A program made the translations under genes and the position numbers. The notes under the pieces were generated by a model. That model was not told the DNA's origin. It did no database searches and was given only the letters and a program-made list of their open reading frames with translations. This document shows positions 58,311 through 61,759 of a DNA stretch of 64,000 nt, in pieces. Origin of the DNA: Escherichia phage AV110; the sequence record OR352940.1; one strand, given 5' to 3'. Numbering within the stretch: position 1 is the stretch's first letter; the number at the start of each line of letters is the position of its first letter.

Positions 58311-59306
58311 TCATTCCTTAAGAAGTTTTACTACTTGAATAAGATTAGCTCGTTCTGTTTTATTTTTACCATTTAAGCCTGCTAATCGTGAGATTTCATC
58401 GTCGGTCTGTTGAATAGTTACATTAAGTTCGTTAATCAAAGCTTCAAAGTATTTGATTTGCTCAGCATGTTTTGATTCAAATTTCTGAACAGGAATAACG
58501 TCTTGGTTTAGTTCATCAATAAGGTCTTTAAGAGCATCTTCTTGGTTGATATCATATTCAACTTCTTTTATTTCTTCAACGAGCTCGTCTTTATATCTAA
58601 CGTCTTTTAGTCCTGGTGCTGGTCCTGAAATCTCTTCTTTAAGAGTACAAACATACCCAATACGGTATCCAATGCCGTCTCGCTTGATATCAACTTCGTC
58701 GATAAATCCACAATGTTTAAGACCAGAGCCGATTAGGTCAAAATATCCTTGACGTCGTCCTTCAAACGTTACACGAACTACTAAGACAGTTTTGCCACCA
58801 ACCTTTTGAAGCTCACATTTATAAAAGTCTGTTGAACCTGAATAACTTGGATGAGTTTTAAAGTTCATCTGACGATCTAGGCCCATTTGTAAACGTGCTG
58901 TTACGGCCATAAAACGTGTTTGGTTCTCGTTAAGATGAGCAACAATCCATTTCAAAGGCATTTTACACTGTTCACGACCGAACAAATCGGTACGTCCTAG
59001 ATTACGCAGGATGTTGTTAGAGTTAATCATCGACAGAACGTTAAGTTTATTCAGCGCGCTGAAGATTCCATCAGCCATTGATTTTCCATAACCTTTACAC
59101 GCTTTAATAAGTGCTCGCGGCAGATTAGTATAGATTTCAGACGGCATATGAAAATCAAATTTACTAGTCAGTAATTGATGAACTTGGATAGCAATTTGCT
59201 CATAATTAAGTGCTCTGCGATCGTTATGGTCTTTAAACCACACTTTAATCTGTGAAGCACATAAACCGTTAATTTCATGTTTTACCGCATCAGATGTAAT
59301 GCTCAT
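58311..59306 (-). CDS. hypothetical protein with C-terminal coiled coil (331 aa)
   Basis: C-terminal 80 aa acidic coiled coil; MotA-box middle promoter upstream. Confidence 0.5.
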   Translation of the reverse strand: MSITSDAVKHEINGLCASQIKVWFKDHNDRRALNYEQIAIQVHQLLTSKFDFHMPSEIYTNLPRALIKACKGYGKSMADGIFSALNKLNVLSMINSNNILRNLGRTDLFGREQCKMPLKWIVAHLNENQTRFMAVTARLQMGLDRQMNFKTHPSYSGSTDFYKCELQKVGGKTVLVVRVTFEGRRQGYFDLIGSGLKHCGFIDEVDIKRDGIGYRIGYVCTLKEEISGPAPGLKDVRYKDELVEEIKEVEYDINQEDALKDLIDELNQDVIPVQKFESKHAEQIKYFEALINELNVTIQQTDDEISRLAGLNGKNKTERANLIQVVKLLKE

Positions 59307-59341
59307 AACTATTTCCTCAGATTGAATTGGAACTCAAAACC

Positions 59342-59366
59342 ATTATAACCCGTCCTTGGGTAAAGC
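59342..59366 (-). promoter_or_regulatory. possible middle promoter (GCTTTA box, 13 bp, TATAAT)
   Basis: ACGCTTTA box after stop of 59369..59896, upstream of 58311..59306. Confidence 0.35.
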
Positions 59367-59368
59367 GT

Positions 59369-59896
59369 TTATGCGTGAACCGTCTTTAAACGTTCTTCAA
59401 ATTTCCGAAGAGTACTAATACGTTCTGCTTTCTGTTTTGTATAGTTTGCAATACGTTCTGAAGTGAGAGCGTATCGTTCGTTTACTGTTTCTTTCATGAA
59501 GTCAGGGATTTCACGAGAAGCTTTAATTTCATCAAACTTATCGAGTACTGCCTGGTCTTCAGCGATTAAATTTTCATACATCTCGATATCTTTCTTGATA
59601 AACTCGATATCTTCCTGGGTTACTTTGGATAAACGAGATGCTTTATCCTTTTTGTACTGCTCGTTAGTTTCACGAGACCAGAATAATGTACGTTTTTTGT
59701 TAGTGTTTTTGTAGACTTCCGCAATTCCAACTGAATCGATGATAACAATCCAATTCCAGCGAGATTTGAAAATCTGACCTCCGTCTACGGTAATCTCGTT
59801 ACCATAAGCAACGTCATTAAAGAACTTGCTTTGTGCTTCAGATTTAAATTTTCCGTCGTTATAATTTACCAGGTTGAAAATATCTTTAGCGTTCAT
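59369..59896 (-). CDS. hypothetical protein (175 aa)
   Basis: GGAGGT RBS and early promoter upstream. Confidence 0.5.
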   Translation of the reverse strand: MNAKDIFNLVNYNDGKFKSEAQSKFFNDVAYGNEITVDGGQIFKSRWNWIVIIDSVGIAEVYKNTNKKRTLFWSRETNEQYKKDKASRLSKVTQEDIEFIKKDIEMYENLIAEDQAVLDKFDEIKASREIPDFMKETVNERYALTSERIANYTKQKAERISTLRKFEERLKTVHA

Positions 59897-59923
59897 GTTT
59901 TACCTCCAGTAGTTGATAGGTCT

Positions 59924-59952
59924 ATAATAACATAACTATAGACCTTGTAAAC
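59924..59952 (-). promoter_or_regulatory. early promoter (GTTTAC-17-TATTAT)
   Basis: Family-1 element with GGTCTATA/TATAGACC inverted repeat around -10. Confidence 0.5.
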
Positions 59953-59954
59953 AA

Positions 59955-60242
59955 CTAAAAGAAACTTTTTTCGGTATTTTTTCCACTGAACCAAACAGAC
60001 TTCGGGATTTTTTGTAATTTTTCAGATTTAAGTTTCTCTTCCTGTTCTTTCTTATATACACCCTTGTCGTACTGGAGCATCTCTATGGCATTCTTTTGCA
60101 AACGATCTAAGGTAATTAAGGCTTTAGTTTTTCCTTTCAAGGAAGAGTCCTGGCGAACCTCCTCACTATATTGCATCGTAGAACTAACCATACGATGAGC
60201 ATACAGTTCGACTGCGGCTTTATTTTTTTGCATAAAATCCAT
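59955..60242 (-). CDS. hypothetical protein (95 aa)
   Basis: AGAGGA RBS. Confidence 0.45.
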   Translation of the reverse strand: MDFMQKNKAAVELYAHRMVSSTMQYSEEVRQDSSLKGKTKALITLDRLQKNAIEMLQYDKGVYKKEQEEKLKSEKLQKIPKSVWFSGKNTEKSFF

Positions 60243-60379
60243 AACATATCCTCTTTGATTTGTACATCATTATTTTAAATATTTCTATGCCCTCAGTAGG
60301 TTCCTGGTGTCCTTCTTTGAGGTAAGCCATATGATTATTCATCTTTATGGCTTTTGTTACCTCAGAACTTCCTATAAGC

Positions 60380-61381
60380 TTATTTCAGTAAAGTTACTTC
60401 AGAGATTTCCTCCCAACCATCTTTATCAGTTGAAATAAAATCTGCTACATAAAGAGCGGTACGTAATGATACATTGCGAAGACGAGATACATTAGCCTTC
60501 ATCCAGGACAATGCTTTATACGTTTCTGCATCAGTCAGACCACGTTTCTGCATCATGTCAGTAGATAATATTACATCTTCAACTCGAACCATAATCTCTT
60601 CATTAGAGTGTACTCCAAGGTCGAGATACACTGAGCGAGATACTAAAGCTTGAAGGTGTGGAGCAAGTTTCGAACCGCGTTCTAACTCTTTATCGATATC
60701 AACGTTTGTAATGAAAACGATAGTACCTTCAAACTCAAATTCTTTATCAATACCCTTATCATCGAGATAAGATGACGCAGTGCTCCAACAAACTTTGCGT
60801 TTATCTCCAGTATCTAATGCTGCTTTAAGAAGATTCAAGATGTCCATATCTGAGAATACGTCAACGTCATCGATTAAGAGAACGCTGTCTGCATCACGGT
60901 TGAGCCAAAGTTGTTCGTAAAGGCCAATACCAGAGATTTTACCATTAATGCTTTTGTATTTGATGAAACCATTATCATTAGCATTATTAAGTGCTTTATC
61001 CAGAGAATACGTCTTACCAATACCGGCTGCACCTGAAATAATGAGTGAACGAATTTTGCCATCGATAATGCCATTCGTCATCATGTTCATTACTTTAAAG
61101 CGTTTGTTGATACGAGTTTTCATATCTTCAGTGCTTTCAACAACTGCAACTGGTGATGTCTCAACTCCTTCCATTACGATGTCTGATTTGAAGACCCATA
61201 CTCCACGTTCAGAACCATCAATCATAACGAAAATTTTACCGTCACCTAAGTGGGAACATTCAGGATTAAGCTTTGCTGGGAACCAGGTCTTTGTGGCAAC
61301 ATAAGAACCAGAGATTTCGTTATTACGATAGATACCTTTTTTGATTTGAACGTTGAACATTTTATTCTCCAATTTACTCAT
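60380..61381 (-). CDS. P-loop NTPase, AAA-like (333 aa)
   Basis: Walker A ISGAAGIGKTYS, Walker B VLLIDDVD, sensor-like TIVFITN; own promoter. Confidence 0.6.
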   Translation of the reverse strand: MSKLENKMFNVQIKKGIYRNNEISGSYVATKTWFPAKLNPECSHLGDGKIFVMIDGSERGVWVFKSDIVMEGVETSPVAVVESTEDMKTRINKRFKVMNMMTNGIIDGKIRSLIISGAAGIGKTYSLDKALNNANDNGFIKYKSINGKISGIGLYEQLWLNRDADSVLLIDDVDVFSDMDILNLLKAALDTGDKRKVCWSTASSYLDDKGIDKEFEFEGTIVFITNVDIDKELERGSKLAPHLQALVSRSVYLDLGVHSNEEIMVRVEDVILSTDMMQKRGLTDAETYKALSWMKANVSRLRNVSLRTALYVADFISTDKDGWEEISEVTLLK

Positions 61382-61398
61382 TTCGTTTCGATAGGTCT

Positions 61399-61427
61399 AT
61401 AATAACATATCCTAAAAGCATGTACAC
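61399..61427 (-). promoter_or_regulatory. early-type promoter (GTGTAC-17-TATTAT)
   Basis: Family-1 downstream motif AGACCTATCG; upstream of P-loop NTPase gene. Confidence 0.45.
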
Positions 61428-61447
61428 TACTTTTTTAAATATTTTAA

Positions 61448-61463
61448 CCCCCTAAAGGGACCC
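61448..61463 (-). terminator. hairpin terminator downstream of secreted-protein gene
   Basis: GGGACC-UUCG-GGUCCC; weak U-tract. Confidence 0.4.
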
Positions 61464-61477
61464 GAAGGTCCCCACAT

Positions 61478-61759
61478 TTACTTATCGCACTTAGCAACAT
61501 AATTAGGCATATCACAGAATACAGAGCGAGTAACTACTCGGCCCTTTGTCCATGCTTCAGTCGCTTGTCCGGCCGTGCTATTAATATAGCTTGATTTAAT
61601 GTTCTCAATACCTTGAGAATGTGATGCATTTACCGAACCATTGGAAGGCCCAGAAGACTGGTTACCACCAGCTCCTGCACTACCGCTGGCTGCACCCGTG
61701 GTAGCACCAACAGAGAATGTCATCATTACTGCGAATAAACCAATTGCTAATTTTTTCAT
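61478..61759 (-). CDS. secreted Gly/Ser-rich small protein (93 aa)
   Basis: Signal peptide MKKLAIGLFAVMMTFSVGA; low-complexity G/S/A/N region; late promoter TATAAATA about 33 nt upstream; hairpin terminator downstream. Confidence 0.5.
   Translation of the reverse strand: MKKLAIGLFAVMMTFSVGATTGAASGSAGAGGNQSSGPSNGSVNASHSQGIENIKSSYINSTAGQATEAWTKGRVVTRSVFCDMPNYVAKCDK

Follow-up and report, generated by a model that had tools for sequence, protein, structure and literature searches.

The nrdC.10/nrdC.9 junction

The DNA analysed here (64,000 nucleotides of Escherichia phage AV110, OR352940.1; referred to below as the window) comes from a T4-like Mosigvirus (Straboviridae), and all of the genes around the spacer under study are on the minus strand. 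Positions 59300-61500 were searched by megablast, which matched 687 phage records; the closest, at 98-99% identity, were Mosigvirus JS09, mar005P1 and SA79RD along with others. The spacer is located at 60243-60379 (137 nt, minus strand, read in the sense direction from 60379 to 60243) and extends from the TAA stop codon of nrdC.10 (60380-60382) to the ATG of nrdC.9 in the nrdC-mobD region. With nrdC.10 and nrdC.9 both encoded on the minus strand, the sense RNA is the reverse complement of the letters quoted when the hairpin in this spacer was first noted.

The upstream gene, nrdC.10 (60380-61381, minus strand, from the open reading frame list), is the homologue of T4 y05F and encodes a P-loop/AAA-like protein of 333 amino acids, whose matches to AAA-family Pfam models were weak and under the gathering cut-off. 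It is followed by nrdC.9 (59955-60242, minus strand), encoding 95 amino acids with a match to Pfam DUF7203 (E = 2e-22), and by nrdC.8 (59369-59896, minus strand); all three assignments agree with the gene order in RB69, Bp7 and T4. NrdC.9 is 92% identical to its RB69 counterpart from residue 8 onward, while the first seven residues (MDFMQKN, or MDFMQKI in most relatives) were found only in phages which carry the gap. The Shine-Dalgarno (SD) sequence of nrdC.9, GAGGA, lies at 60249-60253 (minus strand) and is marked as a ribosome binding site in the record of phage Mizar. The start region as a whole, AUAUGUUAUGGAU (60238-60250), appears to resemble the AU-rich GUUAUG core of the sites bound by the T4 translational repressor RegA.

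Many Mosigvirus GenBank records label nrdC.6, nrdC.8, nrdC.9 and nrdC.10 as 'thioredoxin'. A Pfam scan of the four proteins found no thioredoxin domain, and the label has apparently spread from the gene-name prefix nrdC.

The spacer had been described as longer and more structured than typical gaps in this DNA. It is long relative to the median intergenic gap in the window (31 nt), but 13 of the 103 gaps are at least 137 nt, and by structure (z-score approximately -2.5) it ranks only 12th of the 36 gaps of at least 60 nt. This genome has many stable stem-loops between its genes; the structure of this gap exceeds chance expectation, yet it is unexceptional.

Structure of the hairpin

The nested imperfect hairpin which had been noticed in the spacer is real. 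Its core is at 60318-60364 (minus strand) and reads in the sense direction (U)GAGGUAA, a CAAAA bulge, GCCAUA, a 14-nt loop, UAUGGC and UUACCUC(A). On the plus strand, TGAGGTAA (60318-60325) pairs with TTACCTCA (60357-60364) in the outer helix and AAGCCATA (60324-60331) with TATGGCTT (60346-60353) in the inner helix, the 5-nt bulge between the two being TTTTG on this strand. The hairpin begins 16 nt past the nrdC.10 stop codon and is 34 nt upstream of an AT-rich block. RNA folding, which had been suggested as a check, gave -18.5 kcal/mol for the core hairpin and -27.7 kcal/mol for the sense strand of the whole gap (z = -2.6, with 1 of 200 shuffles as good); the corresponding values for the antisense strand were -25.6 and z = -1.8. 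The 50-nt segment containing the hairpin was in the top 0.2% of 12,791 such segments on each strand of the window.

The lower stem can possibly be extended (60309-60368, minus strand) by pairing GUUCU (60364-60368) with AGGAC (60309-60313). In the single-sequence minimum free energy (MFE) structure GUUCU pairs instead with GGAAC (60300-60304), but the AGGAC register fits 100% of the variants described below, with a U.G to C-G change in 5 haplotypes, and the same 5 disrupt the GGAAC register. The lower stem may in this way make use of the remnant of a second, decayed hairpin (see the following section).

As had been stated, the full hairpin is not followed by a U-tract, and this applies to both strands: the sense strand continues with AAAGAAGG, which has no U in the 8 nt past the stem, and the plus strand with AGAACTTC. 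The hairpin has already been tagged as a WebGeSTer-predicted terminator in GenBank record OL960576, and it is similar to intrinsic terminators, including the WebGeSTer 'hairpin without U-trail' class, in its stability and in its position shortly after a stop codon. It differs from them in its large loop, its bulged and AU-rich stem (5 G-C among 13 pairs) and the U-free sequence which follows. An intrinsic terminator in the usual sense (G+C-rich stem, 3-8 nt loop, U-tract) was rejected on these grounds, the terminator scan also being silent, and with no U-tract efficient intrinsic termination is unlikely.

The only site at which a stem is followed by a run of U is the inner hairpin as read on the plus strand, where GCCAUA...UAUGGC leads directly into UUUUGUU. 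The sense-strand CAAAA bulge thus corresponds to a plus-strand U-run immediately 3' of the inner stem, and the T4 junction hairpin likewise has UUUUUGUCUU after it on the antisense strand, both of which would suit a terminator of antisense (plus-strand) transcription. We consider such a role very improbable: the inner stem has only three G-C pairs and a 14-nt loop and was not called by the scan, the U-run is deleted in phage TH12, and the plus strand of the window has essentially no genes and no late promoter (TATAAATA), the two copies of this sequence in the window both being on the minus strand and outside the gap.

The earlier note had proposed that the spacer may encode a small RNA. An independent gene, whether for a small RNA or a small protein, would be in keeping with the gap being stable, structured and conserved. 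When positions 59800-60800 were scanned against Rfam, no family was matched, the best E-values (1.5-7) belonging to unrelated snoRNA and lncRNA models with scores far under gathering. Consensus scans of both strands called no promoter and no terminator within the gap, and neither a MotA-box middle promoter nor a late promoter was seen there by eye; the small-RNA reading is thus left with neither an Rfam match nor a promoter- or terminator-like site in the gap. A small open reading frame of 40-45 amino acids (60220-60342, minus strand) does start at the AUG in the hairpin loop; a PHANOTATE-based annotation calls it as a coding sequence in ST2, and another record has a hypothetical protein under the gap. 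Its ATG is changed to ATT in three phages, S143_2 has an in-frame TAG, most genomes carry one A more in an A-run, which shifts the frame, and an SD sequence is absent. Taken as a gene in its own right, for RNA or for protein, the spacer element is the least probable of the readings considered here. For the hairpin, the most likely identity is an ordinary stem-loop between two genes of a T4-like phage, rather than a small-RNA gene.

Two other identities were tried and rejected. A dispersed repeat (REP-, ERIC- or MITE-like) is contradicted by the presence of a single copy per phage genome, with none elsewhere in the window and none in 5,426 complete E. coli genomes. A fusion of nrdC.10 to nrdC.9 by read-through or frameshifting is contradicted by the sequence, in which the open +1 frame across the gap never meets the nrdC.9 frame.

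The 3' half of the spacer is a decayed promoter module

Local alignment identified a degenerate copy of a terminator/early-promoter module at 60238-60313 (minus strand), that is, in the 3' 73 nt of the gap, at about sense positions 67-137, and in the first bases of nrdC.9. The intact paralogous module lies upstream of nrdC.10 at 61382-61477 (minus strand), where a terminator is annotated in SA79RD. It comprises a UUCG-looped hairpin (GGGGACC-UUCG-GGUCCC; 61457-61473, minus strand), an AT-rich block (AAAATATTTAAAAAA), a -35 hexamer TGTACA (61421-61426, minus strand), a spacer with a MotA-box-like TGCTT and an extended -10 region (TGTTATTAT, then AGACCTATC). The two copies are identical at 51 of 75 positions (score 47, compared to 22.2 +/- 3.8 for shuffled sequences, of which 0 of 5000 scored as high), and two 12-mers of the gap recur with equal spacing in the spacer upstream of nrdC.10.

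The decayed copy (all on the minus strand) consists of a hairpin remnant (GGACACCAGGAACC), an AT-rich block (AAATATTTAAAA; 60273-60284), a -35-like TGTACA (60261-60266) identical to that of the intact neighbouring module, a promoter spacer (AGGATATGT) between this hexamer and the -10, and a truncated -10, TATGGA (60238-60243), which overlaps the nrdC.9 start codon. The AT-rich AAATATTTAAAATAAT followed by TGTACA is common to both copies. Along with AAATATTTAAAA and TGTACA the gap copy keeps AGGATATGTTAT; the arms of the UUCG hairpin are no longer complementary in it, and the TGCTT at the MotA-box position is gone. It breaks off in the middle of the -10, where TATGTTAT continues with GGATTTT in the gap and with TATAGACC in the intact module, so that the would-be -10 is without its final T and includes the nrdC.9 ATG. 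Homology to the module stops exactly at this start codon, and in the alignment the SD of nrdC.9 falls opposite the promoter spacer of that module. By alignment, the 3' half of the gap is thus shown to be a decayed and truncated paralog of the module situated 1.1 kb upstream, and nrdC.9 to have its ribosome binding site and start codon in what was formerly promoter sequence. No homologue of the 5' 66 nt, which bear the hairpin, was detected in the window, in the phage collection or with nhmmer.

Modules of this type are repeated across the window. The motif TATGTTATTATAGACC, allowing up to 3 mismatches, had 11 matches where 0.87 were expected, mostly on the minus strand, which holds about nine such modules; intact members are found 0.3 and 1.1 kb from the gap. 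In several intact modules a hairpin is present upstream of the AT-rich/-35 region, and many of the most stable local folds of the minus strand fall on these modules. Early promoters of the family were seen on the minus strand at 2365, 2686, 14381, 14961, 27995, 49063, 59919 and 61394, with the pattern GTTTAC(A/T), 14-16 nt, then (C/T)ATG(A/T)TATTATAGACCTATCAA; several are preceded by hairpins (two of them UUCG-looped) and several have a TGCTT MotA-box in the spacer.

These modules were compared with, and fit, the PeSL (promoter-early stem-loop) cassettes of T4-type phages described by Arbiol et al. 2010 (PMC2839356) and Comeau et al. 2014 (PMC4122927). PeSLs have the layout stop codon, AT-rich region, sigma70-like promoter, stem-loop, SD and ATG; the position of the stem-loop varies, and the five positions described include one upstream of the -35 (PMC2839356). 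Their stem-loops reduced expression of a downstream lacZ about as much as rrnB T1, and the cassettes mediate insertions and deletions between close relatives (PMC2839356). They fill the intergenic intervals of hyperplastic regions, their stem-loops behave in reporter assays as terminators or attenuators, and through recombination they bring about both the gain and the loss of ORFans (PMC2839356, PMC4122927).

The gap shares with these cassettes its placement between a stop and a start codon, an AT-rich block upstream of the sigma70-like -35 hexamer TGTACA, a stable stem-loop at one of the five described positions (upstream of the AT-rich/-35 region) and a junction which varies by indels among close relatives. 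It also differs from them. The consensus -10 (TAYWAT in T4-type phages, at approximately 17 nt) is missing, TATGGA overlapping the start codon; the SD is inside the former promoter spacer and not downstream of a promoter, which makes the usual action of a promoter cassette impossible; and the stem-loop is AU-rich, bulged and about 45-60 nt long, with a sequence unrelated to the G/C-rich or UUCG stem-loops of the intact modules. As to repetition, the 3' half of the gap has paralogs and the junction is polymorphic, whereas the hairpin-bearing 5' half is single-copy. Read against the cassette layout, the hairpin is shown to occupy a stem-loop position of such cassettes, that of one PeSL subclass, after the upstream stop codon and ahead of the AT-rich/-35 region, and it is this position alone which suggests a PeSL origin for the 5' 66 nt. 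We read the gap as a composite cassette between genes which is restricted to this lineage and lies in a hyperplastic (indel-prone) part of the genome.

A clear indel of PeSL type was observed about 1 kb from the hairpin. G2469, JM17 and JM10 carry an extra gene of 72 amino acids (similar to RB69 ORF102c) between two promoter modules; in G2469 this locus is at 2262-2657 of sequence L008, and its counterpart in the window (61382-61477) is one chimeric module with the crossover inside TGTTATTATAGACCTATC.

Junction alleles, sequence variation and possible role of the hairpin

The gap was found in about 143 Mosigvirus records, at one place in each and with 95.7-100% identity. Other phages gave nothing beyond short AT-rich matches, and an exact-pattern scan of IMG/VR returned no copy, the one IMG/VR copy bearing the C61A variant. 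Scans of IMG/VR and metagenomes with an NrdC.10 alignment yielded further junction types and no intermediate form of the hairpin. In RB69, phiE142 and Logan contig L011 the gap is absent and the two genes are joined by 7-12 nt (TGA-GGAAATT-ATG or TAAGTTGAGGAAATTATG; the RB69 junction is TGAGGAAATTATG). In ECO111 5-P the junction is occupied by an ORFan of 80 amino acids (L006, 1245-1764), which had no Pfam match; NrdC.9 of this phage is only 55% identical to that of the window, while the end of its nrdC.10 is 98.5% identical. Towards the 3' end of nrdC.10, the RB69 reference sequence (NC_004928; L002, 2515-2575) contains one G more (aactGgataa), as a result of which the annotated coding sequence stops 44 nt before the homologous stop of phiE142 and the window; either a frameshift or an error in sequencing accounts for the difference.

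At the same junction, and with DUF7203 downstream, T4 (NC_000866; L029, 450-543, minus strand) has an unrelated-looking spacer of 94 nt with its own hairpin (GGCAGUUCA-13 nt-UGGACUGCC; -23.4 kcal/mol, z = -3.7), which is also stable and without a U-tract on the sense strand. Deep homology of the two spacers was considered and rejected: it was suggested by eye, and global alignment gave a z of approximately 3.3, but nhmmer with the Mosigvirus profile missed the T4 spacer, which was for that reason excluded from the covariation analysis. In other genera, unrelated hairpins with UNCG or GNRA loops, or full promoter cassettes, directly follow nrdC.10. The junction is therefore an indel hot spot, at which a stem-loop after nrdC.10 is common but not universal. 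Some T4-like contigs (L044, 2181-2900, and L060) carry an open reading frame of 239 amino acids between nrdC.10 and a T4-type spacer, with a start overlapping the nrdC.10 stop (ATGA). A GIY-YIG assignment was suggested by eye for its beginning (KYYYGRH...SYVGSG) and was rejected since there was no Pfam match.

Variation was assessed among the most divergent copies of the gap, which were fetched and gave 17 haplotypes. A structure conserved among homologues, which had been put forward as a check, did not emerge: RNAalifold and pair counts found no compensatory pair changes and 2-4 one-sided compatible changes among the 17 haplotypes, a test without power here because the sequences are at least 95.7% identical and shuffle controls equalled the observed values. 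Stem positions were changed as often as loop positions, and the 14 observed substitutions had a mean ddG no lower than random ones of matching type (P = 0.72). The compatible or stabilising variants were U6C (U.G to C-G, 7 haplotypes), U14C (5 haplotypes), C81U, which adds a pair, and C54U (G-C to G-U); the common ones, U6C, U14C and C81U, are neutral or stabilising for the fold. Substitutions which break stem pairs (U33C, G53A and C61A) each occurred in a single haplotype. In TH12 (MT446390, a record flagged UNVERIFIED; L017, 1201-1332) the 5-nt CAAAA bulge is exactly deleted, leaving a perfect stem of -31.6 kcal/mol. Segregating sites numbered 16 of 139 in the gap and 100 of 430 at third codon positions of the flanking genes (Fisher p = 0.002), which corresponds to odds of about 0.43 despite divergence-biased sampling, and pi was 0.023 in the gap compared to 0.060-0.069 at third codon positions. 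The spacer is thus under some constraint or is younger, with nothing specific to indicate constrained pairs.

These data bear in both directions on whether the hairpin does anything at all. The spacer could be a neutral fossil, the scar of a cassette recombination or of the loss of an inserted gene, in which the hairpin is an incidental quasi-palindrome with no function. The 3' half of the gap is demonstrably dead as a truncated promoter copy, RB69-type relatives which lack the gap retain both genes, the structure score is mid-range among gaps of at least 60 nt, and there is neither covariation nor sparing of the fold by substitutions, three of which break stem pairs. Correction of quasi-palindromes by templated mutation is a mechanism known from T4 mutagenesis, and the exact deletion of the bulge in TH12 is what it would be expected to produce without selection. 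We regard a functionless scar as a serious rival, somewhat less probable than the reading favoured below. Against it, segregating sites are scarcer in the gap than at third codon positions, the destabilising variants are all confined to single haplotypes while the frequent ones are neutral or stabilising, the hairpin is among the most stable local folds, and stem-loops recur after nrdC.10 in other genera.

The reading that we favour, with a probability of roughly 0.45, is that the hairpin represents the stem-loop of a PeSL-like cassette which has decayed, and that it acts as an attenuator or as a protector of an mRNA 3' end. On this reading nrdC.9 would be transcribed by read-through from the nrdC.10 promoter (61399-61426), as part of a polycistronic early mRNA. 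The local promoter looks dead and nrdC.9 needs transcription from upstream, a need with which the missing U-tract is consistent. The hairpin would then serve as a leaky transcription attenuator, as a barrier to 3'-to-5' exonucleases which shields the nrdC.10 message, or as both, and it would also undo the close coupling of translation found in RB69 (TGA-GGAAATT-ATG).

Two further comparisons are the intercistronic stabiliser hairpins of bacterial operons, such as the REP stem-loops between malE and malF, and the RNase III sites between the early genes of T7. The gap shares with them a stem-loop between co-transcribed cistrons which is followed by AU-rich single-stranded RNA, a likeness in shape only, and differs from the REP stem-loops in not being a repeated element. 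Providing the upstream message with a protected 3' end is, by this analogy, a candidate role. The interpretation in the earlier note is supported in part. A regulatory site, the second possibility raised there, is plausible: the cassette layout, the truncated PeSL copy in the 3' half and the variation below that of third codon positions speak for it, while the absence of covariation and the failure of substitutions to spare the pairs do not.

A more ambitious version, which we regard as unlikely, would make the hairpin a newly evolved and functional cis-acting RNA insulator, working by attenuation, as a barrier to exonucleases or as an RNase III-type processing site, which took the place of the decayed UUCG terminator. 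The same event would have turned the spacer and the -10 of the dead promoter into the ribosome binding site and the start codon used by nrdC.9. If true, it would be a documented case of a promoter becoming a translation start.

What can be regarded as new in the favoured reading, a decayed PeSL-like cassette with an attenuating or protecting stem-loop, is modest, namely the recognition of the spacer as a chimeric decayed cassette whose promoter remnant now supplies a translation start. PeSLs and intercistronic hairpins in T4-type phages were already known, and this hairpin had been annotated automatically before. T4-type phages routinely have stem-loops between their early genes, and the hairpin matters little by itself; its context is the useful result. 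The spacer would record the remodelling of a hyperplastic region, in which a cassette was copied or recombined into the junction, its promoter function was lost, and its remnant now gives nrdC.9 a ribosome binding site and its first codons. The three natural alleles of the junction (tight coupling, hairpin spacer and inserted ORFan) offer a ready comparison for the effect of the stem-loop on expression.

A quite unlikely further role, drawn by analogy, is in RNA processing or translational control, the hairpin being cut or bound (for instance by RNase III, or by RNase E in the AU-rich tract) so as to give nrdC.10 and nrdC.9 each its own stability or rate of translation. RNase III cuts at the intercistronic sites of T7, which the gap hairpin may resemble. 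The hairpin of about 60 nt is built of two helices, and its internal loops are asymmetric; some 19 stacked pairs are interrupted by a bulge of 5 nt and an internal loop of 5 nt, and 46 nt of AU-rich unstructured RNA follow before the SD. Part of the hairpin (AAAAGCCAUAA) could pair alternatively with the nrdC.9 start region (UUAUGGAUUUU), 10 of 11 nt being complementary, and in T4 the sequence just past the nrdC.10 stop is similarly predicted to pair with the nrdC.9 SD. The long-range pairing in the gap falls well short of the local hairpin in strength and may be due to chance, and covariation, as noted, is absent. In the MFE structure of the T4 spacer it is GCCUUC which pairs with the SD GGAGGU, and this could mask the SD until translation from upstream opens it. 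Where T4 has GCCUUC, GACUUC is found in many T4-like contigs.
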